A DNA stretch of 64,000 bases, from IMG/VR virus record IMGVR_UViG_3300043411_001575, positions 1 to 64,000 of that record; one strand, written 5' to 3'. Numbering within the stretch: the first letter of the stretch is position 1; every line of letters starts with the position of its first letter. Positions 41,945-60,786 of this stretch are shown here, in pieces. Position numbers and translations under genes: made by a program. The DNA comes from a virus. Under the pieces are notes generated by a model that had not been told where the DNA came from, ran no database searches, and saw only the letters and a list, made by a program, of their open reading frames with translations.

Positions 41945-44149
41945 CCAATGGCAGTTCAAAAACATAAAGATATTGACATCGGTGACGTGGTTCTACATAA
42001 AGACAAGGAGTTCTTGGTTGAGTATGTTTGGAATAACGTAATAGGTCAATGGTATTTCGATTTAAAAGCTTTAACTCCTGTATTAGAGGGATTAGATATT
42101 TATGCCAATGAAGTTAGTGTACCTAGTTACGATTGTATTCTAGTTAAAAAGAAAGAGGTTGATGTTCTTTTGTTTGCATTCAAACTAAGTGACTTGAAGC
42201 TAGGTGAAAAATTTAAGTTTAAAGAAGGACAAAAAGCATTTTACTATACTAATGGAACACAATCTCAAGAACTTGAAACAGAGGAACACATTGAGTTTAT
42301 TGTACTAAAACGAAATCCTACATCTGTTAAATGTAAGATGACTTGTGGTAGAATAGAATATACATTCAAGTTTTCAGGTTATTTCTCAGGTTACATACCT
42401 GTTGAAGATAATTTAATTATAGCTAAAACTTAGTTCATGATTATTGAAAATAAAAAATATACTCAGAATTACGATGGTTCTCATTCAATTATGGTTTCCG
42501 TAGATGATGAATGGTGGTGCGGTAAGGATTTATATGAAACAATTTTAGATTTGGATAATCCTAATTGTAAAAATCAACACTTCATGCATCATGAAAATAA
42601 AATTGTAAAAAAACTACATGAAGAAGGAATTATATTCAAAACTGAACATACTACATGTTTAATGATTGGAGATAATAAAGATAAAATAAAAAAGTTTAAA
42701 GTAGAATTAAAAAGTATTATACTACCAATTTTAATAAGTGAATAAATGCAAGACATAAATGAATTATTAATTCATGATGACTCTGAACTTCAAAAAGATG
42801 ATTGGTTCTCATATGGATTAAAACAACAACAAAAAGAAAAAGAAATGGAAAACACAGAAAATCAAAACGAAGAAAACCAATTAGAAAATATGAATATCAT
42901 TGATTGGTTTAAAATTAAGGAAGATTACCCTCTTTCAGTTCAAGCTGTACAAGATTGGTTTACGGCTAGATATGACCTTGCTGATGCTGAAGTTATAATA
43001 GACCAATACTCAATACTAATAACAAATGGTGTTGGAGGAATGTACTTAAATATTCGTGATTTGTATGACTTCTTTGATGTATATAACGTAAGACCATTTG
43101 TTGTTCCTGAAGGAAATTTCCCGAATGTCAAATATATTATTCAGTCTAAAAAATCTATCATTGAATCAGAAGTTATATTTGAAGAACGAGCTGCTGCTGA
43201 GATAGCAATGTTCATTGAAACTTTTCAGTATATTGAGATTACTATCGAGCATCAAATGAAAACTCAAAAAACATAAAATGGCTAAATTAAAAGGAAAAAA
43301 ATTAGAATTCATTAGCTTCATTAAGAGAGATGGTACAGGCACAATAATGTGCGGTACTGAATGGAATGAAAAAATGAATCATCCAAAGGTAGATGACATG
43401 AGCTACGTTGATGAAGAGGTTTTTAACATACGTGCGCTTTCTTTAAGCAAAGGAACTTTTATTGCAAGTAATTTCAATTGTTTTGTTGTTAAATTGAAAA
43501 ATAAAAATGCGAAAGTATAAGCCAAGCAACGGAACAGAAGGAGAATGGTTCATCGATAAGTATTGTATGAATTGTTTCCACTGTGACCCTGACCCAAGAG
43601 GAAAGAAGCAATGTATGCTTTTATGTGCCTCCATGTGTTATGATGTGAATGAACCTGAATATCCGAAGGAATGGATTTACGATGATGAAAATAAACCAAC
43701 ATGCACTAAATGGCAAAAATGGGATTGGGATACGGATGGTAATCCTGATGACCCTGATAATCCAAATGCTCCTCAACCTGAAGACCCTAATCAATTAGTT
43801 ATGCCATTTATTTTGGATGAGATTGAAATGAAAATAAATGAAAAAAAACATGAAAAAATTGAATGTTGATTATTACGATGTTAAAAACAAATTACCTATA
43901 ATTGGTGAAATTGTAAGCGTGTTTTTTGAAAATAAAGCGTATTCAGGTCATGGTATTTGGTTGAAAGGAATAAGAGTTTCTGATACCACTTTTAAATTAA
44001 ATGAATTAATTGTTAAAATTGATAAAACTGATAGAAGCGAATCAGGAATAGGAGTAACGCATTGGTCTTATTTAGAAGCTAATCATTTACCGAATTTATG
44101 TAGATTGCATAATGGTAATTGTTTTTAAAAAAATATAAAATCAAACAAA

Positions 44150-44344
44150 ATGACGAAAGCAGAAATGTTAGTCGCCTTGAAAAAAGGCAAAAAAGTTACG
44201 CATAAAAACTTCATGGATGATGAATACATGTACCTGAAAGATGGCATGATTGTATTCGAAGATGGTATATCTGTAACTGAAGAAGAATTTTGGATAGGTA
44301 GGAGAGATTATGATTGGCTCACAGATTGGGAGCTTTACAAATAA
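44150..44344 (+). CDS. small protein, possibly DUF2829/Tad2-like
   Basis: MT..E...ALKKGKKV...DWELY layout. Confidence 0.35.
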   Translation: MTKAEMLVALKKGKKVTHKNFMDDEYMYLKDGMIVFEDGISVTEEEFWIGRRDYDWLTDWELYK

Positions 44345-44557
44345 TTTTTCCAAGCTTCAACAGCAACCTTTTTATATTTTATATTAAATGGATACTCATC
44401 AATTGGTAAATCAAGAAAGCCTCTATATATTTGTCCATGACCATGATTAGAATACATCGTGAAATCATATTCCTTTCCTGTTACAGTAGAAACATAAAAT
44501 TCAGGGTTACTCACTGAATGTTCTTCTTTACATATTAACCTATTGGTTAATTCTTCG

Positions 44558-44860
44558 TTAGTTAGCATCTACATCAAAGTAAATTGAAAAACCAAGCTCT
44601 TTGGCAAGCTCTAATTCTATCATAGCTCCTTTGCTTGTTTTGTAATTTGATAACATAAATATAGCATCACACTCCATCATAGCAATAATATCTTCCTTCA
44701 TATAGGATAGCCAAGTCTTATCATGGGCATGATTTAGCTTAATTGGATTAACAGGGATGTATCCTAATTTTATACATTTAGATTCTGCTTCATTAAATAG
44801 CCATTCGGCATCGCATAATTCTAAACCTGTTATTTTACCACTAATATAAATCTTTTTCAT
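44558..44860 (-). CDS. DUF4406 / nucleoside-deoxyribosyltransferase-like protein
   Basis: KIYISGKITG...VNP...W..YM..DI..MMECDAIFML...SKGA.IE..LA. Confidence 0.85.
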   Translation of the reverse strand: MKKIYISGKITGLELCDAEWLFNEAESKCIKLGYIPVNPIKLNHAHDKTWLSYMKEDIIAMMECDAIFMLSNYKTSKGAMIELELAKELGFSIYFDVDAN

Positions 44861-44892
44861 TCAATTAATTTTGTTATTTTACCGTTAAACCG

Positions 44893-44965
44893 TTGAGCGA
44901 CTAGGAATCGAACCTAGAGTCTCTTGAATCAAAATCAAGCGTGTTGCCTGTTACACTATCGCACA
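44893..44965 (-). tRNA. tRNA-Gln(TTG)
   Basis: Cloverleaf; anticodon arm CTTGA-TTTTGAT-TCAAG; T-loop TTCGATT. Confidence 0.9.
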
Positions 44966-45009
44966 ATAAATATTTTATTTTCAGAAAACAAATATACAAA
45001 AAAAATTAG

Positions 45010-45081
45010 TGTGAGTAACAGGAATTGAACCTGTGCGGACGGATTTTCAGTCCGTTGCTCTACCTGCTGAGCTATACCCAC
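45010..45081 (-). tRNA. tRNA-Phe(GAA)
   Basis: ACGGA-CTGAAAA-TCCGT; canonical D and T arms. Confidence 0.93.
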
Positions 45082-45120
45082 ATAAGGCTTTTCAGCCTAT
45101 TGTTTGTTGTTAAATTATTA

Positions 45121-45864
45121 TTACCAATTACCCTTACCTGAATGATAATCATTTAATCTGTTTTTTCTTTTTCCGTTACCTATATTCTTTCCGCAATAAG
45201 TAGGAGTCTGAGCATGGCAGTTAGGGCATATGTTTCTTATATTAGAAACTTTGTCATTTTCAGAATCTCCATCTATGTGGTCTAATTGTAATGGTATTTT
45301 ATTTCCCATCCAATCATGTAAACCGCAAACCATGCACTTGTGACCATTTTTATCAATTAGATATAATTTAAGTATTTTATTCTTACTCGTTCCTGATATG
45401 TTACTTTTAAATGTTCCATCTTCTATTTTTTTGAAATTATATAGTTTCCTGTGATAATAACTACATTCACGAGAGCAAAATTTAGCCACATGGTTTTTTA
45501 ATTTTTTTCCACATATTATACAATTTAATTTTTCCCTCCACATTGGATGACTATTTCCTGACATCAAATATTTATTATTACATTCTCTTGAACACGATTT
45601 AAAATCTTTGTTTTTAGAACCAATAGCCTTCTCGTACTCTTTTCCACAATGACATATACAAATTACTCTTTCATACTTTCTTTTATTAATATTTGAATTA
45701 AAATGCTCTATACTTAAATTAAATTTATCTAACAGTTTTTTAATTTTTTTCATGTTAGCTCCGTTAATACTTAATTTTAAAGCTCTACATAAATCACTTT
45801 TTGAATTTGAATTAATTAATATTTTTTCAAATTCTTCTTTTGTTATACTTTTAAAGTCTAGCAT
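45121..45864 (-). CDS. HNH homing-type endonuclease
   Basis: Zn-finger repeats plus CMVCG...LQLDHIDG...N...N...CPNCHAQT. Confidence 0.9.
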   Translation of the reverse strand: MLDFKSITKEEFEKILINSNSKSDLCRALKLSINGANMKKIKKLLDKFNLSIEHFNSNINKRKYERVICICHCGKEYEKAIGSKNKDFKSCSRECNNKYLMSGNSHPMWREKLNCIICGKKLKNHVAKFCSRECSYYHRKLYNFKKIEDGTFKSNISGTSKNKILKLYLIDKNGHKCMVCGLHDWMGNKIPLQLDHIDGDSENDKVSNIRNICPNCHAQTPTYCGKNIGNGKRKNRLNDYHSGKGNW

Positions 45865-45930
45865 TTGGATGTCGATTTAATGTAAAGTTACAAATAAAAT
45901 TAAATAAAACAAACGTCATCTTATACTAAG

Positions 45931-46002
45931 TCGAAAGTATCGGACTTGAACCGCTCCTGATTACCCCAAATAACCTATGCTACCAATTACAACATACTCT
46001 CG
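45931..46002 (-). tRNA. tRNA-Pro(TGG)
   Basis: GGTTA-TTTGGGG-TAATC; C1-G72, A73. Confidence 0.85.
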
Positions 46003-46018
46003 ATATTATTAAATAAAA

Positions 46019-46028
46019 TTAAAGAACG
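46019..46028 (-). promoter_or_regulatory. boxA-like antitermination motif
   Basis: CGTTCTTTAA directly after terminator 1. Confidence 0.6.
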
Positions 46029-46041
46029 AATTTTTGAACAT

Positions 46042-46070
46042 AAAAAAACCCTGATGATTAGTCAGGGTCT
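46042..46070 (-). terminator. attenuator terminator 1
   Basis: ACCCTGA-CTAATCA-TCAGGGT plus T tract. Confidence 0.85.
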
Positions 46071-46097
46071 CTTATTGTTTGTTTGTGATATATTTTT

Positions 46098-46190
46098 TCA
46101 CCCACACGGACAATACGCTCCTGACAACTGCAATCTAAACTGCGGTTGTTGAGGAAAAAATTGTTGAGTGTATGTGTTTGTTATTTTCAT
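46098..46190 (-). CDS. leader peptide of the Pro/Phe/Gln tRNA operon (MKITNTYTQQFFPQQPQFRLQLSGAYCPCG)
   Basis: Translated by hand; codons 9-18 are all Q/F/P; lies between promoter and terminator. Confidence 0.88.
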   Translation of the reverse strand: MKITNTYTQQFFPQQPQFRLQLSGAYCPCG

Positions 46191-46194
46191 GATG

Positions 46195-46226
46195 CAAAGT
46201 AACGAAATGTTTTTTAATCTACCAAA
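46195..46226 (-). promoter_or_regulatory. promoter of tRNA operon 1
   Basis: TTTG-N20-TTACTTTG, ending 4 nt before the leader ATG. Confidence 0.6.
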
Positions 46227-46270
46227 TTTATTTTGAATTATTTTTAAAAATATTTTATTAACTTCGTGAA

Positions 46271-46768
46271 ATGATAGTAATGAAAGGTGTTTGCGAAGTT
46301 TGTAATGATGGAAAAGAAAAGCAATTAGCTAAGAAAAGACCTCCTTTGTGTGGTTATCATTACTCAATTGAACAGCGAAAAAAATCTGCTGAGAAAAACA
46401 AAGACAAGCCAAAGAAAGTTCAAAAGCAATTAAAACGTACTCCATTGTCTTATAAAAGAAAAGCTACAGGAGAGCTTGAACTTATGAAGAGTATTTGGGA
46501 TAACATGGAAGAACATAAATCTTTCATTAGCGGAAATCCAATTTATGAATTCAATGTAAGTTGCATGGCACATGTATTAGCAAAAGCAAAAAATAAGTAT
46601 CCTAAATTTAAATTGAATCCTGATAATATAAAATTACTCACATACGAAGAACACTTCAAATGGGATAATGCTCCACGCTCTGAGTTAATAAAACTTCCTG
46701 AGTGGGACAAAATGTTTAAGTTAGAAGAAGAACTAAAACAAGAATATAAATTATTGTTTGGATTATAA
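46271..46768 (+). CDS. HNH/NinG-like nuclease-fold protein
   Basis: CEVC..CGYH finger; AHVLAK..YP...NPDNIKLLT.EEH..WD. Confidence 0.5.
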   Translation: MIVMKGVCEVCNDGKEKQLAKKRPPLCGYHYSIEQRKKSAEKNKDKPKKVQKQLKRTPLSYKRKATGELELMKSIWDNMEEHKSFISGNPIYEFNVSCMAHVLAKAKNKYPKFKLNPDNIKLLTYEEHFKWDNAPRSELIKLPEWDKMFKLEEELKQEYKLLFGL

Positions 46769-46769
46769 A

Positions 46770-47264
46770 TTAATGCTTATTGTTATGCTTTTCCCGATGA
46801 TGCTTTCTACACAACCAATTTACTGTTAAAGGCTCATTGTAATCTTCATGATGCGCAAATGTATTTATGCTATCACATCCTTCAGTCTCGCATATTCCAC
46901 GAATTAATTTACCTGTCTTAACTGCGTAATATACCTTTTTTCTTGCTCTTATCTTTTCAGGATACCTTTCGCATTGGATTTTTTTATAGTGGTAATTGTT
47001 ATTTGATATGCCATCCTTCCAATTAGGATTATTTTCACCATCAAATTTATATTTTTCATGTATTATTTTAGCACTTTTTTTACCGTTCTCTATTCTAAGC
47101 TTACTAATTTGTGCAGTTGTTCTTTTAATATTATTCCTCATCATTATCCTTTCAATACCCCAATGAGTCATATTGAATTTTTCAGCGAGTACTGAATTAG
47201 ATAAATGTAAATTATTTGAAATAAATTCAAGCATTTCATTTTTTTGTTCCTTTGTTTTTCTCAT
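46770..47264 (-). CDS. HNH-like endonuclease
   Basis: GENNPNWKDG, GICETEGC...AHHEDY..PL.V.WLCRKHH; start moved to ATG 47264 because the upstream part of the track ORF overlaps tRNA-Leu. Confidence 0.8.
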   Translation of the reverse strand: MRKTKEQKNEMLEFISNNLHLSNSVLAEKFNMTHWGIERIMMRNNIKRTTAQISKLRIENGKKSAKIIHEKYKFDGENNPNWKDGISNNNYHYKKIQCERYPEKIRARKKVYYAVKTGKLIRGICETEGCDSINTFAHHEDYNEPLTVNWLCRKHHREKHNNKH

Positions 47265-47306
47265 AATACAAATATACATAAATCTTAGTAGTTGTACAAT
47301 AAAAAG

Positions 47307-47387
47307 TATCCCTAGCAGAACTCGAATCTGCAAGTCAAAGACAATGGTTTTTAAGACCATCCTGTTTACCAATTTCAGCATAGGGAT
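47307..47387 (-). tRNA. tRNA-Leu(TAA)
   Basis: ATGGT-CTTAAAA-ACCAT; long variable arm. Confidence 0.9.
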
Positions 47388-47393
47388 ATTTTG

Positions 47394-47475
47394 TACAGAT
47401 AGAGGTATTCGAAACCTCATGCATTTCTGCGTATGATTCTAAATCATGTGCGTCTTCCAATTCCGCCATATCTGC
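47394..47475 (-). tRNA. tRNA-Leu(TAG)
   Basis: ATGA-TTTAGAA-TCAT; long variable arm. Confidence 0.88.
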
Positions 47476-47491
47476 ATTTGTTTTTTTATTG

Positions 47492-47564
47492 TTGGAACAC
47501 TAGGAGTCGAACCTAGATTAGCGGTTTTACAGACCGAATTCTTACCCTTAGAAATGATGCTCCA
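47492..47564 (-). tRNA. tRNA-Tyr(GTA), atypical short variable arm
   Basis: CGGT-CTGTAAA-ACCG; T arm CTAGG-TTCGACT-CCTAG. Confidence 0.75.
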
Positions 47565-47570
47565 ATTTTG

Positions 47571-47656
47571 CGGAAACAGCAGGACTTCAACCTGCACGGG
47601 CTTTTATACCCCTAGCGTTTTTCAAGAACGTGTACCTCTGTCAATTGGGTGCTTCC
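47571..47656 (-). tRNA. tRNA-Ser(TGA)
   Basis: CGTT-CTTGAAA-AACG; long variable arm; G73. Confidence 0.8.
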
Positions 47657-47685
47657 AAATTATTTTATTTCAATGAACTGTTTTG

Positions 47686-47769
47686 CGGAGAGCAGTGGTC
47701 GTGACCCACACTCGTTTAACCGAGCCGACAACTTAGCAGGTTGCGCCTACCCTGATAGGTTTACTCTCC
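47686..47769 (-). tRNA. tRNA-Ser(GCT)
   Basis: GCAAC-CTGCTAA-GTTGT; long variable arm; G73; non-canonical T-loop. Confidence 0.8.
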
Positions 47770-47773
47770 TTTT

Positions 47774-47847
47774 GGGTAATATATCGGGATTGAACCGATG
47801 ACCTCTCGAATCACAATCGAGCGTTCTACCACTGAACTAATATCACC
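47774..47847 (-). tRNA. tRNA-His(GTG)
   Basis: CTCGA-TTGTGAT-TCGAG; C73. Confidence 0.9.
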
Positions 47848-47857
47848 ATGTATCTTT

Positions 47858-47867
47858 TTAAAGAACG
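47858..47867 (-). promoter_or_regulatory. boxA-like antitermination motif
   Basis: CGTTCTTTAA directly after terminator 2. Confidence 0.6.
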
Positions 47868-47881
47868 AATTAATATAAAAC

Positions 47882-47911
47882 AAAAAACCCCAAACTTTTC
47901 AGTTCAGGGTT
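47882..47911 (-). terminator. attenuator terminator 2
   Basis: AACCCTGAACT-GAAA-AGTTTGGGGTT plus T tract. Confidence 0.85.
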
Positions 47912-47933
47912 CTTATCATGTAAACAAATATGT

Positions 47934-48011
47934 TTAACTACAATAGAGATTTTCCTGAACCGATTGCTTCGGATACAGCGACAAATAACTATGTAATGAT
48001 GTATTTTTCAT
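47934..48011 (-). CDS. leader peptide of the His/Ser/Ser/Tyr/Leu/Leu tRNA operon (MKNTSLHSYLSLYPKQSVQENLYCS)
   Basis: Translated by hand; codons 5-13 are all S/L/H/Y. Confidence 0.88.
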   Translation of the reverse strand: MKNTSLHSYLSLYPKQSVQENLYCS

Positions 48012-48019
48012 AATGGATG

Positions 48020-48050
48020 CAAATTAAAGGATTATTTATTTATCCGCAAA
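48020..48050 (-). promoter_or_regulatory. promoter of tRNA operon 2
   Basis: TTTG-N19-TTAATTTG, ending 8 nt before the leader ATG. Confidence 0.6.
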
Positions 48051-48641
48051 ATTTATTTTTAATAAAAATCATATTGAATTGAAAATGAGTGAAATAAAAT
48101 TATTCGATGCAAATTAATTCTACTTTTTTGACTTTATCCCAAATCTTACCGAATGCAGTAGGATTCAACCCAACTTTTGCAGTCCAATTTGTAGGGGCAA
48201 TCCATTTCTGTCCATCGTGTAAATTACCCACAGAAGCTACAGAAGTACCTCCTCCTGATTTTTTCTTCCAATAAATACGGTACAAACCACATCTTAATTC
48301 TTTAACGTCTTCTTTTTTCATCTTATTTTTTTTAATTTAAAATACGTCTAACTTCAGGAAAACATTTGTCTAATTTATTCTCCCATTCTACTGAGTAACG
48401 TGAATAATAGTCCATGTTTCTATTTACTCTTTCAATAGCCTGCTCTCTTGTGAAATTGTTACATATCATACAGAATTCAATGTGAGTTTCATGAGCATCT
48501 TTAGCTAATTTAAATTTGTCTTTCATTAAAACATCTTTGAAAAACCAATCCATAAACCAATCATATACGATTGGTAATTCTTTTGTTGGATTAGCATTCC
48601 ATTCTTTTAATTCCTTTAATGATTTTATTCTTTTTTTCATT

Positions 48642-49235
48642 TTATAATACATTTAATTCTGAATATTCTGTACCCCAATTTTCAATAGCAGCTTCATTAT
48701 ATGCTTTAGCAGCATCTTCTTCACTTAAAAAATAACCTAAATGCTTTTTCTTGTAGTCTAATTTTATTGACGCAGACCACTTGTTAGCGAACTTATTCCA
48801 ACTGACTCCTTTATAAATACTGCTTGGAACATTACCATTAGCGGTTCTTTGTTTTTTCTCTTTATAGTGAGCTTTTTGATGGCTTATTAATTCAAGATTA
48901 TCTCTTCTTAAATTTAATGGATTCCTGTCTTTATAATGAATTACCGTTTTACCTTCTGCTTCAAGTAATAATTTAGCAAAAGGAGCTACAATTCTTTTTC
49001 CTTCTTTTGAAATCCAAAGTGCCATTACTGCTTGTCTCTGTTCATCAAACCAAATATCTTGTTGCCTGAGAACTTCATAATCAAAATCATCAAACTGAAT
49101 ATTTTTTCCGCAAGTGGTTTTTACCCATCTGAATTGGTCTGCAAAAATACGCATTGCCTTTACCACATCTTCAGATGTAAAACTATTATTCTCTTTCCCA
49201 AATAAATCTTTTATAACCTGTATCTCTGTTTTCAT
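48642..49235 (-). CDS. HNH-AP2 domain protein
   Basis: Degenerate HNH (IHYKDRNPLNLRRDNL) plus AP2 (YKGVSW...KWSASI...HLGYF.SEEDAAKAYNEAA). Confidence 0.85.
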   Translation of the reverse strand: MKTEIQVIKDLFGKENNSFTSEDVVKAMRIFADQFRWVKTTCGKNIQFDDFDYEVLRQQDIWFDEQRQAVMALWISKEGKRIVAPFAKLLLEAEGKTVIHYKDRNPLNLRRDNLELISHQKAHYKEKKQRTANGNVPSSIYKGVSWNKFANKWSASIKLDYKKKHLGYFLSEEDAAKAYNEAAIENWGTEYSELNVL

Positions 49236-50141
49236 CTAGCATAAATATATTTACCGCCATCCCAAAATCTTTCTGATTTATTTTTAATACCTAACCACTC
49301 CCTAAATGAAAGACCACTATCATCACTAAGGAATTCACGGTATCTTATTTGTGAACGAGTTAGTTTTTTAATTGGTGGCTTATGATTAAATGTTTCCAAG
49401 TATTGTACTTCCCATGTTGGATGGCAAGGCAAAGGCTCTGCGGTTACATTATCATAAAAATTAACTCCGATATAGTTTCCCATATCTTTTGTTATTACCC
49501 CTTTTTTACCATTAACAATTACCTCTCTGTGTATTTCAGCAGGAACATTATATCTGTTTTTTATGTATTCGAATTCCACTTTTTATTTCGTTTTAAAATC
49601 TTCGTATTCTCCAATATAACAAACTCCATATTCAAGATAATCACCATCCTTAGTAAATTCTTTTTCCATAAATCTAGCTTCTTTATAGGCACTATCTTCT
49701 GTTTCAAATAACTTACTCTTACCAAAGTACTTTTTAAGTTCCTTTTTACGCTTTACACTTCCTTCAGGAAAGAAATAAATATTATCTATGCATTGCGTAT
49801 AAATAACTCTATATCCATCAGGAAACTTAGCTATGTATATCCCATTGTCTGCACTCATTAATTTGTATTTTTATAAAACCAATATAAATCTCCATCAGGC
49901 TCTAAAATCCATTCGCCTAAATAATCTTTTGCGTTATCACAGGTTAAGGTTATTTTACTCATACTATCAATCTTCAAAGTTTTAGTATCCATAATAGTAG
50001 CAGCTCTTATTGTTAACTGCCCATGAATTTCCTTTACAACCACATCAGTACTTCCGATGTGGCTCTTTAGGTCTTTTGGTACACAAATGATAACAGTATT
50101 GTGCCTGTATGTAGTATCTACAATTTTAACTTGAAACATAA

Positions 50142-51194
50142 TTACTCTTCGTTATTGTAAAACACTTTGTAAAACTTCATTCCTTTTTCTTCATCAAAAC
50201 CTTTTTGAACTAGGTCATGTCTTCCATGAATGTAAAGATGAAAGTTCTTGTCTAATTTGATGATTCCTTTAAAATATTTCTCTTGTTTCTTTACCGCTGT
50301 TGCTGAAATTTCGAAGTCTTCAACATCATTTTTTACGTGATTAACTTCTTCACTAATTGTTCGGTATTCTTTGAAGCTATCAATTAATTCAGGTTGAGAT
50401 AAAACTTCTGCTTGAAACTCTTCTATGTTAAATCTATCCTTATCTTTAAAGTAGTTTAGTGACCTGTCTTTAATCAACATTTGGTCAACAGGCTCAACAT
50501 TGTTTTCTTGTGTTAAAACCTCTTCACAGAAATTATTAATTGTAGCTAACATGTTGTTTGTATGAAAGAATCTATCTTCACAAAGTTTTACCCCTAAGAA
50601 ATCTTCTGTCCAATATAAAGCTGCCTGAGCTATTTTATGACTATTATCAATGATGCTGATTTTATAACCATCTTCATTGTTAACATTGAATATCAAACAT
50701 CCCTTGTCAAGTTTATTGATGTTTATTCCATTCTCTGCTTCTACCTCAAAATTATCAAGGTTTTGATTTAATTTTAAGTATGTTTCTTTATTCTCCGACT
50801 TGAAGATTCCAATAGCATCACAAAGTTCTCCATCTACAACACAATCTCTGATATATGTCATAAAGAAATCACCACCTTTAATTTTAGGATGATTACTTTG
50901 GTCATAAAGACGTTGAGCAATCTTCTTAGAGTTTTCAAACATAGTTGATGGGTTATCAAACACATCTCGTACATACGATTGAACATCATAAATTTTAATC
51001 GCATCAGGCTTTCTGAATTGGAAATACACATCAGATTTAAAGGTATTCAGGAAGAAATGGTAAATAGTTTCCTTAACCCATTCATCGCCTATTTTATTAG
51101 GCATGTTTGCGAAGACAATCTCTTCTCCTAATCCTTTGTTACCAACGTAGTGTATTGCGATTTCGTTGGATTCACTTCTTTTAAATTCAATCAT
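50142..51194 (-). CDS. nucleoid-associated protein (NA37/YejK-like, Bacteroidota type)
   Basis: IHYVGNK, LYDQSNHPKIKGG, AIGIFKSENKETYL, GININKLDKGCLIFN, YWTEDFL, IKLDKNFHLYIHG. Confidence 0.8.
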   Translation of the reverse strand: MIEFKRSESNEIAIHYVGNKGLGEEIVFANMPNKIGDEWVKETIYHFFLNTFKSDVYFQFRKPDAIKIYDVQSYVRDVFDNPSTMFENSKKIAQRLYDQSNHPKIKGGDFFMTYIRDCVVDGELCDAIGIFKSENKETYLKLNQNLDNFEVEAENGININKLDKGCLIFNVNNEDGYKISIIDNSHKIAQAALYWTEDFLGVKLCEDRFFHTNNMLATINNFCEEVLTQENNVEPVDQMLIKDRSLNYFKDKDRFNIEEFQAEVLSQPELIDSFKEYRTISEEVNHVKNDVEDFEISATAVKKQEKYFKGIIKLDKNFHLYIHGRHDLVQKGFDEEKGMKFYKVFYNNEE

Positions 51195-51214
51195 TTTTTT
51201 CTGTTTTTTAATTA

Positions 51215-54200
51215 TTATTTATCTTCTACTTTTTTAATTATTTCACACCATTCAGCTATGAAATCAGTTTCTTCACCTGATTCTAAGCGAACATAAACAC
51301 GATTATTATCCAAGAAGCCATACCCAATAATTTCTCCTTTAGATGAAGTTCCAAATGCTTTTTGCTCGACAATATCACCTACTCTTAAACCATAGTAGCG
51401 ACTTCTGTTTTCGTTATCAAATTCTTTTTGCATTTTAATCCTCCTCAGATAAAACAGGTTCTAACTCTAATTCAAGAAGAGTAGCTAGTTTTTGTTTTTC
51501 TTCTTCTGTTACTTCAATTAATTCTTCTTCATCCCATTTTTCACACAATGTTTTAGTTGGAAGAGAAGTTGGAGAAAAGAACTTATGCTCAATACCATTT
51601 TCATCAATTACAGTAATGATAGTTGTTCCACCATCTCTGTATCTAGTAAAGTTTTTAACTTCAAATTCTTTTACAACTTCATTTTCAATGACAAAAAATC
51701 TGTGGTTTTTATATTGGGAATTGTAAGCAGGTGAATCAACTAAAAAATATTTAGGGTTTTCATCTTTTGTCTTGAAACAATATTGAATTTTTCTAACATC
51801 TTCAGGTATTTTCAAAAACGTCATAGATAAAGCTTTTTCTATCTGTTCGAAATTTACAAAAGTTTCATTTGGGTATGGATGATTAAATGGATTACCCTTG
51901 TCGTAACTAGCAGCTTTTTTCATGAAATTAAATTCAGGTGTCCAATCCATCCTACCAATTAAAAGTATTAAATTATCACCATGTGAATAAACTGTAAATT
52001 GTGATTTATGCACATCATACCAAACGTTTTTACCATCTGCTTGTTTCATATCTCCACGACCTGAACCAAATCCACCACCAATCATTTCAACAAAATAATC
52101 TGTTTTAGGAAATCTAATGTAAACTTGATGGTCTCCACCTTCTAAACCGAATCTTAACAACTCAAAATATTCTTGTGCCGTTTCTCTGTTTTCATCTTCA
52201 ACATCTGTGAAGTAAATAGCAGTATTTTTTAAATCAGAACTTCTAAAAAGTTCCACATCTCTTCCTTTGAATTGTGATAAATCACCGAATTGTTTTTCCA
52301 TTTTGTTTTCTTTTAATTTAAATTTTTAAATATTTTCAAGTTTTTTCAACTCTTTCAATTTTTCATCTCGAAGCTTTCTTACTTCAGATAAAATTAATTC
52401 TTTTGTTTCTTCTAAAGAATATAATTCAGAATGCGCACCTATACCTCCTACAAACATGAATTTATGTTTATACCTATCTCTTATGAATCTAACTGAAAAC
52501 AAAATTGCATCATTAATAAAATGTTCAACTGAATAAAGAGAGTCAATATGTTTATCATAATCTGAATAGTGAACATCCTGATAAGTTGAACTTTCTTTCC
52601 AATAGTGTCCTACTCTAAATCCGATAGAGCGAATCCACCTGTCGAACTCATTGTATTTATCCAAGAAAGCTTGTCTTTCTTCTCTTTCTTTAATTGCTGA
52701 TGTTTTGTATTTTTTCTTTGCCATAATTATCCAATTTGATTTTTAATAATTTCTTGTTTTGTCATATACTCATCAAATGCATTCATGAAAGCTAATACAT
52801 CATCATCGTAATCTGAATCAGGGTCGTAATAATCAAAATCTAACTTATGTGATATTTCTTTTGAAAAAATCATATCATATTTATTCTTCCATGATAAATC
52901 AGATGCAGCAATTTTTTTAGCTCTTTCGTATATAGCAACTTTTTCACCATAAGTTAATTCAACTTCATTCATTGATTCTTTTGTAGACTCAATAACATCA
53001 TTAACTAAAGTTAATATTTCATCTGTGAACCATTCACTTTCGAAATCATAACCTAATTTCTTTTCTAATATTTTTTTTACTTTCTCATCCATGATTATTT
53101 ATTTTCAATTTTATACTCGGTTCTAATTTTTGATGGAGAATAACTAATAGCAGGTAAAGTTTTAATAAATTGATTTAACTCATCTAGTTTATCTTGTAGT
53201 TCTTTTGGTATATCTCCATCTTCAGGCAATTTATCCTCCCAAATACTACTATCAATATTATCCAAATAATTTGAATCGCAAATTACAAGCATAAGGTCTT
53301 TTGGGTCAACTTCTGAGTCTTCACAAAAATCATCAATCTCATCAATATTATAAAAATATTTACTATAGTTCTCAGAATAAACAGGCTGTTTACCATCCCA
53401 CTCTTGAAAAGTATAAGCTTTATATCTTTCTACAGCCGATTTACTTATACAAAAATCACATTTAGTCCAACCTTTAGTTACCTTGTTCCCACACTCACAT
53501 TTATTATGAGTAGAACCATCATGACGAGCAGTACGTTCATCAGAGCCATAAAATCTACCATTACGACTTACCCATCCTGTTACTGTCATTTTTTTTGCAG
53601 CAATTTCATCATCAGGGAATACTACTAATTCTTTTTCCTTTTCCATTCTTTTTTTTTTAATTAAGATTGCTCAGGCAAATTATTAAATTCTTCTTCTGTC
53701 ATCATTACGGGAGTAACAGTGTATTGTAAATCATCAATCTCATATTTACCATCATCTGTTTCAACATCGAAATCTGCTAAAATTATTTCTTCTGCTCTTG
53801 AAATATCTTTAATAGTTACTGATAAATCTCCGTTGCTTTCTACAAGCCAATATAATTTCTTTTCCATTTTTAGTTTTTATAGTTTATAATAATGAAAGTA
53901 TTTCATGATATTTGTTAGTTAATCTTACAAGTTCTTCAAAATCTTTTTTTGAAAAATCTTTAAATTCATCTATATTATCAATGTTATCAAGAATTAATTC
54001 CATTTGATTCAAGACTTTAAGAACATCCATTTTATGTATAATTCCTAATTGGATTTTTGCTTCTGAAGTTAGTTTACCCATTTTTATTTTTTTAGCTAAC
54101 TAAAATTGTTTCTTCAATATAAACAGATGGTCTTCCTCCTGACATCTCTTCATTGTATACCTGAGACTTCTTTTTATCTTCAGCTTTTTCTTTATCAGTA

Positions 54201-55361
54201 GTGCATAAGATAAAACCATTATCTCTTGATAAAACGATATAAACTTTTGTATCTTCCATGTATTTATTTTTTAAAAAACTTCTATTAGGTTCTCTTCCAA
54301 ATATTTTTATATAATGTTTAACAGTCCATTTTCTCCACCTTGCGCTCTTTTTATGATGATTTGAAAACAAACAATCTCCACTAGTACATCCGTTTTCTCC
54401 GCCTTCACAAGTAGCACTATTACATAGTTTCACCATAACATATTTTTCTTCTTTACCTTTCATTTTTTAAAAGTTTTTTTATCAATAAATCCATTTCCTT
54501 CTTTAAGTAGTAGTTTGTATTTATCTTCATTGAATATTTTAATGCAATTATTTTGTTCATCATCTAAAGCAACAAAACCTCTTTTTACTATCAAGTGATG
54601 GTGAAAGTTTTTATTCATGCATTCAAGAACTAATAGATTTTTACCATCACGTTTGGCTGAGTATTCAAACCATTCAAAAACATCATCCAAATGACCATTT
54701 CCAATTTCATCATTCATAACAGAAAGGATAAAATAGCTATCACCCGAATCACCCCATTGACCATGACAAGTACCTACTTTGAATAGCATATGTTTTTTAC
54801 CAACAACGCTGTAAGGACTTTGAGCAACTTGGAAGTCTAAGTTATGTTTTGTTTGAATTACGTTTTCCATAATTAAATCAATTTATAAACTCCTAATTCA
54901 ACTAATTCTTCTACTGAGTAATCCAAGTAAGGTAGAGCGTAACCTTTTGATTGTAAAAACTGAAAGCAATAAGCATATTCTAATGGAGAAGTACTAACCG
55001 AGTCTACCGATTTACCAAAAAAAACTTTTGTTGATTCCTTTCCAACTATAACGTACATCTCTTTAAGGTCATCTATATTTTGGTCTTCCCTAATATCCCC
55101 ATCCAATCTTTTTTTGATAATATCACGACCCCAATTTAAATATTTAGCTACCTCAATGGCATCTTCATCAGAAATATTTTGTATTTCATTCAGAATAACC
55201 TGAATATTTGAAAACATATAATGGTCTTCTTGTATTTTAGAACAAGTTTCATATGTAACTTTGAATAAATCGCTAGGCTCAACAATAGCAGGAGTTAAAA
55301 ATCTTTGCCCTATATATTGAGCAAATATCTTAGCTTTTATTTCTTTCGTTATTTCTTTCAT
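51215..55361 (-). other. block of small hypothetical phage genes
   Basis: About 10 co-oriented ORFs with no recognised family. Confidence 0.65.
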
Positions 55362-55378
55362 AATTATTTTTAGTTTAA

Positions 55379-55876
55379 CTAAACTTCAAAACAACATTTA
55401 GGATTCATTATTAAAACACTTTCACAATCCCAACCATATAGTGAAATAGGATACGTTAAATGAGTTTCCCCTTGTCCTTTTTCAGTTAACCAAATGGCAT
55501 CACACATTGTTGATAAAAATGAAAAATCAGGATACTCTCTTTTAATTGAACCTAAACCTATATCCAATAGAGGAAGTTCAATAAGGTCTTTTAGGCTATC
55601 AATAAGAATTATCTTAGTATCAGGATTAAACTTCAACTTAAAGCTATTTGATTCATGGCATTGTCTAAATTCAGCACCTTCACACCAATCTTTCCATCCC
55701 CAATTAGAATCAACAGGAGAAGTCCATAAGCCACCTTTAGGTTTAACCCAATTTTCATTTGAAATTGGCTTAATAGATGACTCTATGTATTTTTTTGCTC
55801 CGTAATGAATAACAGTTAGACTACTAACAGCATCAGGATTTGCGAAATTAAGCTTATATTTAGTTTGATTTTCCAT
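55379..55876 (-). CDS. conserved phage protein, possible ADP-ribosyltransferase-like fold
   Basis: IHYG...KPKGGLWTSP...LYGWDCES. Confidence 0.4.
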   Translation of the reverse strand: MENQTKYKLNFANPDAVSSLTVIHYGAKKYIESSIKPISNENWVKPKGGLWTSPVDSNWGWKDWCEGAEFRQCHESNSFKLKFNPDTKIILIDSLKDLIELPLLDIGLGSIKREYPDFSFLSTMCDAIWLTEKGQGETHLTYPISLYGWDCESVLIMNPKCCFEV

Positions 55877-55882
55877 AACTAA

Positions 55883-56266
55883 TTAATCAATTAATTCAAA
55901 TTCAACAGACTCCGAATAGTAACCATTTGATGAGCCAAACCAACGAATATCTACATATCCTTTTATGGTAGCTAATTTATAGAAAGTCCAAGTGTAAGAA
56001 TCATAACTAGAAGAATTTTTACCTTCATCTGATTCAGCATATTTTTTTTCAAAATCTTCGTTGCTAACTTGTTCAGATAACAAAATTGGACTGCCAACTA
56101 AATCTTGTAAATCACCATTAATATCATCAATCATTACGTTTTCGCAACAATCCTGAGAGTGATACATTTTGTATTGTAAACCTTCTGACGTAACGAAAAT
56201 TATTTCATCATTCCCATCATTAATCACAGAGGTAAGTGTTTTACCAACTAGAACTGAAACATCCAT
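55883..56266 (-). CDS. conserved phage protein (DUF7448-like)
   Basis: MYHSQDCCE.V...GDLQDLVGSPIL...TWTFYKLAT.KGYVDIRW.G.SNGYYSE. Confidence 0.7.
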   Translation of the reverse strand: MDVSVLVGKTLTSVINDGNDEIIFVTSEGLQYKMYHSQDCCENVMIDDINGDLQDLVGSPILLSEQVSNEDFEKKYAESDEGKNSSSYDSYTWTFYKLATIKGYVDIRWFGSSNGYYSESVEFELID

Positions 56267-56277
56267 AATTGTTTTTA

Positions 56278-56299
56278 GTATTTGACCATTGCAAATATA
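56278..56299 (-). promoter_or_regulatory. promoter plus GGTCAAATAC motif
   Basis: Minus strand TATATTTG-CAAT-GGTCAAATAC. Confidence 0.65.
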
Positions 56300-56349
56300 A
56301 TAACATTTTTGATATTACAAGCAAAAAAGATATTAACAATTTTATAGAG

Positions 56350-56423
56350 TGACTATACAAGGACTCCAACCTTGAATCTTCGAGTTCGTAGCCCGATATG
56401 TTATGCGATTACACTATATAGTC
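56350..56423 (-). tRNA. tRNA-Arg(ACG)
   Basis: TCGGG-CTACGAA-CTCGA; T-loop TTGGAGT. Confidence 0.85.
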
Positions 56424-57487
56424 ATTTGTTTTTTATATCTCCTTACCCAAGAAGTAGCTCCACTCTTAGTTAGTCCAAATAAATTCATTATTTTTTTAAC
56501 TATTTTTTTATCATTTATATTAATGTTGTTTTCAGTTAAAATTTGAATTCTATTCTTATTGAACTTAATTGATTCATCTTTCATATTGTCAAAGTATCCT
56601 GATTTAGAACCATATTTCCTAGCCCTTGACAATCCATTTCTATCAGTCTTTTTAAAACACTTTGATTCATAAAAGTCAGGCATAAATTTAGACATCCATC
56701 CTTTAACTTTTTGTGGTATTAAGTCTGTTATTTCACTAACTCTCTTTGCCCATCCAAACTTAGAAAAATCAATATCTGAATTACTTATTATTTCTATTCT
56801 TTTAGAATGTATATTTTTAAAATTAAACTCATTAATACAATCAGTATATTCTTTACGTGATTTACTTTTAAATACTTCTTTTTTCTGTTTAATATAAAAA
56901 GAATAGTCAATATTACCCATATAATATTCATTCTTTAATCCTGAAATTAAATCACTTACAAATGATTTTTTATATATATTTGAATAGTGTATATCAAATA
57001 ATTTCCATCCTAATTCCTCTATTTCTTCTTTTCTTTTTTGATAATATTCTTTTAGAGAACCATCTCTATTATAATGTTGATTTCCATTTACCTCTATACC
57101 TATTTTTTTATCAGGGAATGCAATATCAATACTAAAAAACCTATTATCTAATGGTTTATACTCTTCTACAAAACTAATATCATTTTCAATAAATAACTTT
57201 TTTAAAATTTCACATGGTACAGATTTTAATTTTTCACTTCGTTTCCAAACGCATTTTTCAGGATTTTCTCGTAGATATAAAGACATTTTCAAACTTAAAT
57301 GCTTTCTTAATTCATCACTATGTTTTATTTTATGTTTTATTTTTTTGATGAAACCTTCTCTTTCAGCTCTATTTAATACATTTTTACCAATACCAAATTT
57401 TTTTGTTATTTTAGTCCAAAGTAATCCATTCTCATGTTCTGATTTAATTAAATCCCAATCTATTTTTGTTAAATCTAATCTCTTCAT
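56414..57487 (-). CDS. DUF559/Vsr-like (PD-(D/E)XK-related) endonuclease
   Basis: FVEEY...FSIDIAFPDKKIGIEVNGNQHY...LGWKLFDIHY; stop lies inside the tRNA-Arg 5' end. Confidence 0.8.
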   Translation of the reverse strand: MKRLDLTKIDWDLIKSEHENGLLWTKITKKFGIGKNVLNRAEREGFIKKIKHKIKHSDELRKHLSLKMSLYLRENPEKCVWKRSEKLKSVPCEILKKLFIENDISFVEEYKPLDNRFFSIDIAFPDKKIGIEVNGNQHYNRDGSLKEYYQKRKEEIEELGWKLFDIHYSNIYKKSFVSDLISGLKNEYYMGNIDYSFYIKQKKEVFKSKSRKEYTDCINEFNFKNIHSKRIEIISNSDIDFSKFGWAKRVSEITDLIPQKVKGWMSKFMPDFYESKCFKKTDRNGLSRARKYGSKSGYFDNMKDESIKFNKNRIQILTENNININDKKIVKKIMNLFGLTKSGATSWVRRYKKQMTI

Positions 57488-57527
57488 AATATTTATTTTT
57501 ATACAAATATATGAATATTATTTTTAG

Positions 57528-57617
57528 AATCCCCGATAGGAGTCGAACCTACATTATTCTTTTAAAAAGAAAGCAAAATTAGAAGTTTTGTGCATTATCC
57601 ATTTATGCTACGGGGAC
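57528..57617 (-). tRNA. tRNA-Arg(TCT) with extended variable arm
   Basis: CAAAA-CTTCTAA-TTTTG; variable region of about 20 nt. Confidence 0.82.
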
Positions 57618-57691
57618 ATATATTTATCTACCTCTTCGCAATCTGCGAGAAGTAAAAAAAGTTTTTATGTGCCTTGTAGTTAACATTGAAT

Positions 57692-58093
57692 TTAATTTTT
57701 GATATGTTTATTAAAGGATAACATTAATCCATTTATATTTTCTTTTCCAACAGGATTAGCACTTTGAATATTATACAATGGTAATTTTAATTTATTATCC
57801 AAACAATATTCTACTAACCATTTAGCGCAATCATATCCTGTTTTTTCTTCTTTCTTTAATAATCTTGATTTTCTTTTACTCATTCCTTTTGCCCTAGCTT
57901 CTAAAGCAACTTCCATTCCTAAATCATGGTCAAAACAAATAGCTTCAGGTAATCCATTTTGGTTAATCCAATCAACAAATTCATTATAAGATTTAACCCA
58001 AATACAATCAAAAGGTTTTTCAATCGGACTATATGAAAGCCAATCTCCTTCAAAAGGATTTCTCAAATCATCTAACCATAAAAGTTTTTTCAT
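57692..58093 (-). CDS. cyclic-phosphate-processing receiver-like domain protein
   Basis: LWLDDLRNP...WVKSYNEF...ICFDHDLG...KTGYDCAKWL...IQSANPVG. Confidence 0.8.
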   Translation of the reverse strand: MKKLLWLDDLRNPFEGDWLSYSPIEKPFDCIWVKSYNEFVDWINQNGLPEAICFDHDLGMEVALEARAKGMSKRKSRLLKKEEKTGYDCAKWLVEYCLDNKLKLPLYNIQSANPVGKENINGLMLSFNKHIKN

Positions 58094-58107
58094 TTTAAAA
58101 ATATTTG

Positions 58108-58180
58108 TGGCTCAGGGGGAACTCGAATCCCCAACCCTCGCATTAAAAGTGCGATGCTCTACCGATTAAGCTACTGAACC
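58108..58180 (-). tRNA. tRNA-Lys(TTT)
   Basis: TCGCA-CTTTTAA-TGCGA. Confidence 0.93.
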
Positions 58181-58270
58181 ATATTAATAATTACTTACTC
58201 TTTCGCTTTCGCAAAAAAGAAGATAAAGATTTTATGTTTCTCGTAACTAACATTGTTTTATTTTTTTATG

Positions 58271-58342
58271 TACCCGTTGATAGAATCGAACTACCGACAT
58301 AATCCATGTAAGGGATTCGCTCTACCCCTGAGCTAAACGGGC
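58271..58342 (-). tRNA. tRNA-Val(TAC)
   Basis: AATCC-CTTACAT-GGATT. Confidence 0.92.
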
Positions 58343-58352
58343 ATTTATTTTG

Positions 58353-58426
58353 TGGAGCGTACAGGATTCAAACCTGTGTAATCTTTCGTGCAAGGAAAGT
58401 GCATAGTCGGACTCTGCCAACACCCC
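58353..58426 (-). tRNA. tRNA-Ala(TGC)
   Basis: CTTTC-CTTGCAC-GAAAG; G3.U70. Confidence 0.9.
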
Positions 58427-58432
58427 ATTTTG

Positions 58433-58505
58433 TGTTCCCTACTTGAATCGAACAAGTGACCTCTCGGTTATGAGCCGAATGCTTCTACCCCTGAGCTAAA
58501 GGAAC
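58433..58505 (-). tRNA. tRNA with CAT anticodon, probably Ile2 (lysidine)
   Basis: TTCGG-CTCATAA-CCGAG; body resembles Ile2; Ile2 versus Met assignment is inferred. Confidence 0.75.
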
Positions 58506-58514
58506 TAATTAATA

Positions 58515-58760
58515 TTATTCTCTCAATGCATCTCTTATAACTTTATTCTTCTGTGTACGTTTATATTTGTTATATCCGCTACATCCAAAACAATTACAAG
58601 GTCTGCTTGTTGTTTTCAAAAAAGTATAACCATTTCCTGTTAATGCTTTCTTAATTTCTTTTTCGTCATTCCAAGATGGATGAGCGAACCAATTTTTTAC
58701 TCTTCTTTTAAATTTTGTTTCTTGTTTATGCCTATTGTAGGCACGACTTAAATTTTTCAT
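58515..58760 (-). CDS. small basic protein with CxCxxC motif
   Basis: 81 aa, Arg/Lys-rich, RPCNCFGC. Confidence 0.6.
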   Translation of the reverse strand: MKNLSRAYNRHKQETKFKRRVKNWFAHPSWNDEKEIKKALTGNGYTFLKTTSRPCNCFGCSGYNKYKRTQKNKVIRDALRE

Positions 58761-58833
58761 AGCTTCAAGGTTATCACCACTAGCGTAGCTTGGCTAATGG
58801 CTTATAGTTTGAATCTATGTTCTTTTATTGTTT

Positions 58834-59355
58834 TCATTTTTTAGCCTCGATTGATTTTTTAATAATAAAACTTATAGTTCCTTTGCTTTTAATATTTAGT
58901 TTTTCAGCTATTTGCTTATACGAAAGTCCTTCAATATGTAATTTAATTATCTCTTCATGATTGTGCTTCTTTACAAATGAAGTAGCTCTTAAAGCCATTT
59001 TCATTCTAACATCAGAAGGTTTATCCATATTGTTTTCTGAAGCTGTTCCTATTAAAATATTGTCTTTTGAATTATCTTTTTTATTCCCATTTAAATGCCT
59101 AACATGTACACCTTTTTTAAATATTTCATCTCCATATTTTTGATAAGCTACAAGACGATGTACCGAAACTTGTTTTGAAACAGATTTACCATCTATCAAT
59201 ATTCTTCTTGAAATATAGTAATATTTAGTCGTTGTATTAGTGGATAAATTATGCTTTCTTTTTTTATAAAAAACATTCCCTTCTTCATCAACCTTATATC
59301 CTACTCTAACAGCCTCTAATAAAGCTAATGTAGATATTGATTCTTTTATTTTCAT
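58834..59355 (-). CDS. HNH endonuclease with C-terminal HTH
   Basis: VHRLVA...VRHLNGNKKDNSKDNI..GT.SEN..D. Confidence 0.9.
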   Translation of the reverse strand: MKIKESISTLALLEAVRVGYKVDEEGNVFYKKRKHNLSTNTTTKYYYISRRILIDGKSVSKQVSVHRLVAYQKYGDEIFKKGVHVRHLNGNKKDNSKDNILIGTASENNMDKPSDVRMKMALRATSFVKKHNHEEIIKLHIEGLSYKQIAEKLNIKSKGTISFIIKKSIEAKK

Positions 59356-59368
59356 TTTGTTATTTTTG

Positions 59369-59442: not shown

Positions 59443-59451
59443 TTTTTATTG

Positions 59452-59524: not shown

Positions 59525-59528
59525 ATTT

Positions 59529-60776: not shown

Positions 60777-60786
60777 GTTTTTTTTG

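Follow-up and report, generated by a model that had tools for sequence, protein, structure and literature searches.

The closest described counterparts of the element studied here are leader-peptide attenuators. The pheL-pheA and pheM leaders, for example, each hold a short open reading frame (ORF) with a run of cognate codons. The thrL (Thr/Ile) and ilvGMEDA (Leu/Val/Ile) leaders of enterobacteria combine several amino acids in one leader, and a shortage of any of them relieves termination. Control of tRNA genes, for its part, is exerted mainly at the promoter, in response to growth rate and through the stringent response. Classical attenuation of genes of the translation apparatus has been described for pheST in gamma-proteobacteria and for trpS and leuS in Streptomyces (PMC1262725), as well as for hisS paralogs in bacilli (PMC2965389). 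In the literature searched (open-access papers and bioRxiv only), the only genes reported to be under classical attenuation were those of amino-acid biosynthesis and a small number for synthetases, and leader-peptide control of tRNA genes was not found. Here, we describe a small unit on the minus strand of a virus genome, at positions 46019–46226 of a 64,000-nucleotide stretch (the window), which lies in front of the phage genes for tRNA-Pro, tRNA-Phe and tRNA-Gln. The window is the first 64 kb of one 169,658-bp virus record (IMGVR_UViG_3300043411_001575), and coordinates refer to it unless stated otherwise. Judging from its sequence and from RNA folding models, we consider it likely that the unit is a ribosome-mediated (leader-peptide), trp-style attenuator, which responds to how Pro, Phe and Gln codons are decoded and thereby gates the phage tRNA operon.

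Like the pheL-pheA, pheST, trpS and leuS attenuators, the unit combines a short ORF rich in cognate codons, an intrinsic terminator and a predicted antiterminator that uses the 5′ arm of this terminator, which makes the two structures mutually exclusive. We first describe the leader and its versions in related phages, and then the predicted switching of its RNA and the other explanations that can be offered for it. Finally, we turn to two sister units in the same genome and to the place of all three among known systems.

The leader ORF and its versions in related phages

The leader ORF (46190->46098, minus strand) runs from an ATG at 46190 to a TGA at 46100–46098 and comprises 30 codons plus the stop (MKITNTYTQQFFPQQPQFRLQLSGAYCPCG). 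Its codons 9–18 (46137–46166) read CAA CAA TTT TTT CCT CAA CAA CCG CAG TTT, that is, QQFFPQQPQF. An earlier note on this DNA, made from its letters alone, had drawn attention to this run of Gln, Phe and Pro codons and to the genes for the three matching tRNAs downstream; the run is there as described, and the three genes do follow on the same strand. When the 169,658-bp genome is translated in all six frames (339,312 codon positions), this is the sole run of at least ten residues built from Pro, Phe and Gln. The runner-up that contains all three has 7 residues, and the number of runs of at least ten expected from residue frequencies is 0.001. The run lies 135 nt upstream of the genome's only Pro, Phe and Gln tRNA genes. 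Moreover, the order of promoter, short ORF, terminator and tRNA genes occurs three times in the genome.

The leader ORF has no Shine-Dalgarno sequence and is preceded by a promoter of the Bacteroidota type. Its upstream element AAAATAAATTTGG (46223–46235, minus strand) includes a −33 TTTG at 46226–46223, and its −7 box TTACTTTG (46195–46202, minus strand) lies 24 nt past this TTTG and 4 nt ahead of the ATG. We take TTACTTTG to be an element of the Bacteroidota sigma-A type, with the consensus TTTG / TAnnTTTG. The AAAATAAATTT(T)G motif also stands at the head of both sister units and of most of the relatives' leaders. The wider pattern TTTG-N22-26-TTTGCA has eight matches on this strand, of which three fall at the three leaders. 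The position of the −7 box suggests that the transcript starts at or beside the AUG. The earlier note had read the same 4-nt spacing as a sign of a leaderless mRNA. The spacing is as stated, and the leaderless reading fits this genome only, since the corresponding distance in the relatives is about 9–33 nt.

Between the ORF and the tRNA genes lies an intrinsic terminator (46042–46067, minus strand). It is formed by CCCUGA (46067–46062), a 7-nt loop, UCAGGG (46054–46049) and a stretch of seven U residues (U7, 46048–46042); the stem can be extended to 12 pairs via A-U and G-U pairs, with a predicted free energy of −13.8 kcal/mol. A consensus hairpin scan gave this hairpin on the opposite strand only (46048–46068, plus strand), without a following T-run. 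Downstream of it on the minus strand are tRNA-Pro(UGG) at 46002–45930, tRNA-Phe(GAA) at 45081–45009 and tRNA-Gln(UUG) at 44965–44892. The operon is split between Pro and Phe-Gln by an ORF for an HNH endonuclease (45864–45121, minus strand). In the relative L003 the three tRNA genes are contiguous and this ORF is missing, which is why we regard it as a recent mobile insertion; similar HNH ORFs break up the other tRNA blocks. No terminator was seen between tRNA-Gln and the next ORF (44860–44558, DUF4406), and read-through may therefore reach the DUF4406 gene.

Related versions of the unit were sought by several routes. No close relative came from IMG/VR or from a phage collection. The IMG/VR searches, through the neighbouring gene for an NdpA-like protein, a degenerate peptide pattern, the terminator sequence, an alignment of a 165-aa neighbour and a structured pattern, gave no true relative. 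The two terminator-sequence matches in IMG/VR were ordinary gene-end terminators, and the two structured-pattern matches were due to chance. A protein-alignment search of JGI metagenomes also gave no relative, and the structured DNA pattern TGTCRGG-gap-CCCTGAY-gap-RGGGTTTTTT, applied to JGI data, found further related contigs. A protein database yielded L003, a syntenic contig from ENA whose NdpA-like protein is 73% identical. This anchor led mostly to bacterial chromosomes and unrelated phages, and only one entry (P0002) gave a syntenic relative. The 165-aa protein, encoded by the divergent neighbour of the leader, led to a 375-kb contig in a Bacteroidota metagenome-assembled genome (MAG; G001:C16, loci L021–L023) and to a second MAG contig (G002:C486, L032), at which a listing of tRNA genes over the whole MAG had also pointed. 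In other contexts, homologs of this protein adjoin a His-Ser-Tyr-Leu block and not the Pro/Phe/Gln unit.

Altogether, six versions of the leader can be compared. The window has MKITNTYT-QQFFPQQPQF-RLQLSGAYCPCG and L003 has MKNINTYNN-FFFPQQQPF-SKQLSGDSFCPCV. Three versions resemble one another closely, namely MKNKVNT-FQQPFQPQF-RLWLSGVA (L023), MKNKVNT-FQQPFFQPQF-RLWLSGVV (L044) and MKNKVNT-FQQPFFQPQPF-RLWLSGVV (L035), and the sixth, shared by L032 and L048, reads MKNLNLNNN-FFQFQQPQF-ILRMSGNCL. In the five versions outside the window the run has 9–11 residues; its order and length shift by whole codons, and a fourth amino acid never enters it. tRNA-Pro follows the leader in all six, joined by Phe and Gln on contigs that extend far enough (Pro, Phe, Gln in L003 and in L032; three Pro, one Phe and two Gln in L044). 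Comparison of the versions thus shows that the composition of the run is kept in related phages, along with the potential for RNA pairing described below. In about 350 kb of fetched loci, bacterial and unrelated phage contigs included, runs of at least seven Pro, Phe and Gln residues with all three present occur only at the homologous leaders.

Two simple explanations can be weighed at this point. A match between run and tRNA genes could be a coincidence, in an AT-rich intergenic region where an open frame and a terminator chance to occur. Apart from how small the element is, nothing speaks for this; against it stand the expected count, the uniqueness of the run, the like match in the two sister leaders and the retention of the run in the five other versions, and we hold a coincidence to be extremely improbable. 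The second explanation is that the peptide itself has a function. Outside the run, however, peptide conservation is limited to (L/M)SG, whose codons spell UGUCRGG, the segment complementary to the terminator arm, which argues against a functional micropeptide. On the expected count, the uniqueness and this pattern of conservation, we rejected both.

The choice of codons within the run differs from that of the rest of the genome. Of the 12 Pro codons found in the six leaders, 10 are CCG, compared to 6% in the long ORFs of the phage; for the 24 Gln codons, 8 are CAG, compared to 17% in ORFs. This bias may reflect selection for slowly read wobble codons, which we offer as a lead only. Alternatively, it may stem from a conserved CCGCAG in the small hairpin described below and from the shared ancestry of three of the versions.

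As a side observation, L003 also carries, at its positions 8152–8230 and 8717–8790 (plus strand), two tRNA genes to which ARAGORN assigned 8-nt anticodon loops with the four-base anticodons ‘cata’ and ‘ctat’. An additional tRNA-Gln gene lies between the two, and Rfam rates both as good tRNAs (55.6 and 51.7 bits). These tRNAs may be frameshift-suppressor-like, or they may be oddly structured.

Predicted switching of the leader RNA

The core of the proposed switch is a choice between two partners for one strand. Region 2, the predicted 5′ strand of the antiterminator, reads GUCAGG-AGCG-UAUUGU (46110–46125, minus strand). Region 3, the predicted 3′ strand, consists of ACAAUA (46078–46073) and CCUGAC (46066–46061); it spans 46061–46078 (minus strand) and overlaps the 5′ arm of the terminator. 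This complementarity, which the earlier note had pointed out, is present in the sequence. In minimum free energy (MFE) folds of the untranslated leader, region 2 instead pairs with the regulatory codons in a region 1:2 hairpin (46099–46176, minus strand) and the terminator forms. A small local hairpin within it, GCAGU-UUAG-AUUGC (46143–46130, minus strand), is a candidate pause hairpin; four or five of its five pairs can form in 5 of the 6 versions.

The decision was modelled on transcripts cut just ahead of the 3′ arm of the terminator, with a 28-nt ribosome footprint imposed. With the A site on any of codons 9–18, the predicted fold contains the antiterminator (GUCAGG:CCUGAC plus UAUUGU:ACAAUA), at −19 to −24 kcal/mol. 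With the footprint at the stop codon, the terminator arm is predicted to be unpaired, and the partner of GUCAGG becomes the stretch of regulatory codons that the ribosome has already passed. This contrast between stall and stop appears in all six versions as a result of the model. The footprint-constrained folds, compared with free folding as the earlier note had proposed, therefore favour its suggestion that a ribosome stalled at codons 9–18 frees region 2 for pairing with region 3. Its further suggestion, that a ribosome at the stop covers this segment, needs amending. The terminator arm is indeed left free in the model, but only the TATTGT half is covered, and GUCAGG would be sequestered behind the ribosome and not beneath it.

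The boundary of the effect coincides with that of the run. When the footprint is moved codon by codon, the zone that permits antitermination ends at the last run codon in five versions (in the window, at codon 18, with the pairing lost from codon 19); in L003 it ends one codon past the run, with partial pairing. In addition, we folded 400 sequences in which the leader was dinucleotide-shuffled and the terminator left intact. Of these, 43 paired the arm in all stalled states and seven also freed it at the stop; none of the 400 reproduced the full three-state logic.

Sequence comparison tells a similar story about the strands involved. GUCRGG is kept in all six versions, and the outer helix of the antiterminator is paired in 36 of the 36 cells of the alignment, compared to at most 53% in controls in which the partner strand was slid. 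The terminator is paired in 95.8% of its cells, with one pair changed on both sides. Its 5′ arm CCCUGA is invariant and its 3′ arm varies (UCAGGG, AUCGGGG, GUUGGGG), which is what one would expect if the 5′ arm has to pair with either of two strands. In its inner part the antiterminator is not the same from lineage to lineage, but it is predicted in each.

Put together, these results suggest the following course of events. Host RNA polymerase would start at the Bacteroidota-type promoter, with the transcript beginning at or beside the AUG, and a ribosome would translate the 30-codon leader as the polymerase nears the terminator. When Gln-, Phe- and Pro-tRNAs are plentiful, the ribosome would reach the UGA and cover the UAUUGU half of region 2, with GUCAGG re-pairing behind it. 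CCCUGA would then be free, the terminator hairpin would form and transcription would stop at U7 (about 46042). When any of the three is scarce, the ribosome would stall in codons 9–18 and mask region 1. Region 2 (46125–46110) could then pair with region 3 (46078–46061) before the 3′ arm of the terminator is made, and the polymerase would read through into tRNA-Pro, tRNA-Phe and tRNA-Gln. The new tRNAs would in turn relieve the stall, which amounts to a negative feedback on tRNA supply. Translation of the leader, stalling, the efficiency of termination and read-through all enter this scheme as modelled steps, and the physiological signal would be tRNA abundance or tRNA charging.

Several points weigh against this scheme. 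Full-length equilibrium folds keep the terminator as the MFE structure of unit 1 under every footprint, from which it follows that the switch must be kinetic, as is the mechanism of the trp attenuator. With 6 + 6 pairs on either side of an internal loop, the antiterminator is short. In the outer helix there are two changes to G-U, each on one side only, compensatory double changes are absent, and the shuffle control for this helix is uninformative. The protective 1:2 state of the untranslated RNA (arm free) is predicted in only 4 of the 6 versions, and a stall upstream of the run also permits the antiterminator in 4 of the 6 in the model. Furthermore, the scheme assumes coupling of transcription and translation as well as near-leaderless initiation in a Bacteroidota host, and an extra tRNA would be of no help if the amino acid itself were limiting. 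Finally, it does not account for a conserved box past each terminator, which could be a second transcription entry point or a processing site.

This box, CGTTCTTTAA at 46019–46028 (minus strand), lies between the terminator and tRNA-Pro. Its general form, CGTTCTTTRA, has four copies in the genome, three of them just past the three attenuator terminators (46028–46019, 47867–47858 and 63126–63117, minus strand). The box is found 10–16 nt upstream of tRNA-Pro, tRNA-His and tRNA-Asp. A shorter GTTCTTTRA follows some tRNA genes (62101, 60880, 59713). The box is kept in several relatives and absent in at least L023.

The box brings in two further explanations. Firstly, the ORF could sense the decoding of Pro, Phe and Gln as proposed, and the output could be RNase processing at the box, transcript stability or access of Rho. 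The recurrence of the box after terminators and some tRNA genes would suit this idea, as would two of the points just listed, namely that the equilibrium folds never lose the terminator and that the antiterminator lacks double covariation. On the other hand, a canonical terminator with a GC stem and U7 stands between ORF and tRNA genes in all six versions, its 5′ arm is complementary to a conserved segment of the ORF, and in every version the modelled switch point falls no more than one codon from where the run stops. In addition, the box is missing from L023. We therefore regard control by processing, stability or Rho as unlikely.

Secondly, promoter, ORF and terminator could form an independent small gene (for a micropeptide or a small RNA), and the tRNA genes could have a start of their own downstream, for instance at the box. 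The distance of the box from tRNA-Pro, tRNA-His and tRNA-Asp would allow for this, and the terminator is predicted to be strong. Yet the box does not resemble the leader promoters. Moreover, an independent gene leaves unexplained why the amino acids of the ORF match the tRNAs behind it, three times in this genome and in reshuffled form in the relatives, and why the tail of the peptide differs among versions in both length and sequence, save for the part that RNA pairing constrains. We give this explanation even less credence than the previous one and retain attenuation by the leader as the likely function of the unit.

Sister units and the genome setting

The same arrangement recurs at two other places on the minus strand. 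Sister unit 2 (47879–48050) consists of a promoter, the ORF MKNTSLHSYLSLYPKQSVQENLYCS (48011–47934) and a terminator (47914–47883). The ORF reads MKNT-SLHSYLSLY- at its start and stands ahead of genes for His, Ser, Ser-like, Tyr, Leu and Leu tRNAs. Sister unit 3 (63131–63371) has a promoter, an ORF beginning MKRRNIIVENMWSENTGDKACT (63297–63187) and a terminator (63164–63134), ahead of a block of 16 tRNA genes (Thr, Met, Ile, Asn, Asp, Trp, Glu, Gly, Cys, Ala, Val, Lys, Arg). Its leader is a near-pangram of this block, since it holds the genome's only 21-residue window with all 13 amino acids and at most one outsider. The amino-acid sets of the three leaders (3 + 4 + 13) do not overlap and together account for all 20 amino acids. 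For units 2 and 3, the switch is predicted even in full-length equilibrium folds.

Both sister units have counterparts in the relatives. The versions of the unit 2 run are LYLHSSLYLS, SLHSLSYLYLHS, SLHSLLSYLS and SLHSLSYLS, and pangram-like leaders stand ahead of a Thr-Met-Ile... block. The unit 2 block (47306–47846, minus strand) is made up of Leu, Ser and Tyr tRNAs, which are the class II tRNAs with a long variable arm, plus His; the grouping of tRNAs into three operons may thus follow tRNA class. Part of the 16-tRNA block may have its own promoters, independent of leader 3, as suggested by two more matches to the Bacteroidota-type promoter pattern within it (59604–59635 and 60299–60331, minus strand).

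The Ser-like gene of unit 2 is a 25th tRNA-like gene (47572–47656, minus strand) that ARAGORN missed. It has a class II shape, an anticodon loop CUUGAAA and a sub-threshold match of 21.9 bits to the tRNA-Sec model of Rfam. By its anticodon loop it would be a Ser(UGA) tRNA. Relatives have a tRNA-Ser(tga) at the equivalent position, and sister leader 2 contains TCA and TCG codons, which the putative Ser(UGA) tRNA could read.

The genome as a whole has a G+C content of 30.7%. All of its tRNA genes (24 in the ARAGORN count) lie on the minus strand, between 44892 and 62318, with HNH-type ORFs scattered among them. A Bacteroidota host is indicated in three ways. The leader promoters fit TTTG / TAnnTTTG; a phage gene for a nucleoid-associated protein encodes a product that is 50–64% identical to chromosomal Bacteroidota proteins; and related contigs were binned into Bacteroidota MAGs. 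The gene in question, for an NdpA/NA37 protein (50142–51194, minus strand), has its counterparts in Sediminibacterium and in Bacteroidia MAGs. It is probably host-derived and thus a clue to the host.

Other genes hint at a conflict over tRNAs. The window encodes an RtcB RNA ligase (24932–26362, plus strand) and, within the tRNA block, a protein with a cREC_REC ‘cyclic-phosphate processing receiver’ domain (57692–58093, minus strand). The presence of both suggests that the phage repairs cleaved tRNAs, and hence that it is in conflict with anticodon nucleases of its host. A Fic/DOC protein is encoded at 22433–23248 (plus strand).

Two further observations concern RNA genes. Beyond the window, at genome positions 64716–65002 (minus strand), lies a candidate tmRNA-like gene that ARAGORN flagged with an asterisk, with the tag peptide GEVKLAA. 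Prevotella phage Lak-A1 has a region that matches the Ser/His tRNAs.

The units compared with known attenuators

Phages have been proposed to carry tRNA genes for codon compensation or for escape from defences that target tRNAs (PMC10264068). The three leaders could add to this picture. It is conceivable, though we would put it forward only tentatively, that they act as a phage-borne monitor of decoding capacity, which covers every amino acid and separate isoacceptors for Arg, Ile, Ser and Leu. Replacement tRNAs would then be turned on only when host tRNAs fail (e.g. through cleavage by anticodon nucleases or host shut-off), and the genes for the RtcB ligase and the cyclic-phosphate-processing receiver would belong to the same counter-defence. 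This would be an inducible, feedback-controlled tRNA supply, a mode that is undescribed in cells or viruses.

If unit 1 does work as an attenuator, its output would be the very tRNAs that are sensed, which would make it a direct homeostat for decoding capacity, and phages would regulate their tRNA sets and not merely carry them. The question of why phages carry tRNAs would also become testable, as the leaders predict which shortage induces which tRNA block. Moreover, their small size (about 190 bp) and modular build could suit the units to use as natural reporters of whether particular tRNAs are available.

How, then, does unit 1 relate to the systems described so far? T-box riboswitches share its presumed aim, that is, read-through of translation-related genes when a specific tRNA is undercharged. 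However, a T-box binds the tRNA directly through its specifier codon and T-box bulge and has no ORF, whereas the phage unit would act via a translated ORF; no T-box match with E <= 1 was found by Rfam within 44000–64000. Likewise, no leader family of Rfam (Thr_leader, His_leader, Trp_leader, Leu_leader and others) matches 46019–46226. With Thr_leader, for which the cut-off is 55 bits, sister unit 3 (63130–63217) reaches 30.4 bits and its L003 homolog 27.5 bits.

The likeness to leader-peptide attenuators is closer. As with pheST, trpS and leuS, the gene that would be controlled belongs to the translation apparatus. Those attenuators, however, act on protein-coding genes of cellular genomes and respond to one amino acid, whereas the phage unit precedes tRNA genes and holds codons for three. 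Compared to leaders of the pheST type, it also has no Shine-Dalgarno sequence, a near-leaderless start and a promoter of the Bacteroidota type. In mixing codons for several amino acids it resembles the thrL and ilvGMEDA leaders. There, the amino acids are linked by their biosynthetic pathway; in the phage leader, they are linked only by the tRNA genes that follow. Where a classical attenuator has biosynthesis or aminoacyl-tRNA synthetase genes downstream, this one has tRNA-Pro, tRNA-Phe and tRNA-Gln plus the HNH insert. We therefore see the unit as a variant of the leader-peptide attenuators rather than a plain member of the group. It differs from known attenuators in its phage carrier, in the division of the amino-acid alphabet over three units and in its Bacteroidota-type signals, and above all in its presumed target, the tRNA genes themselves.

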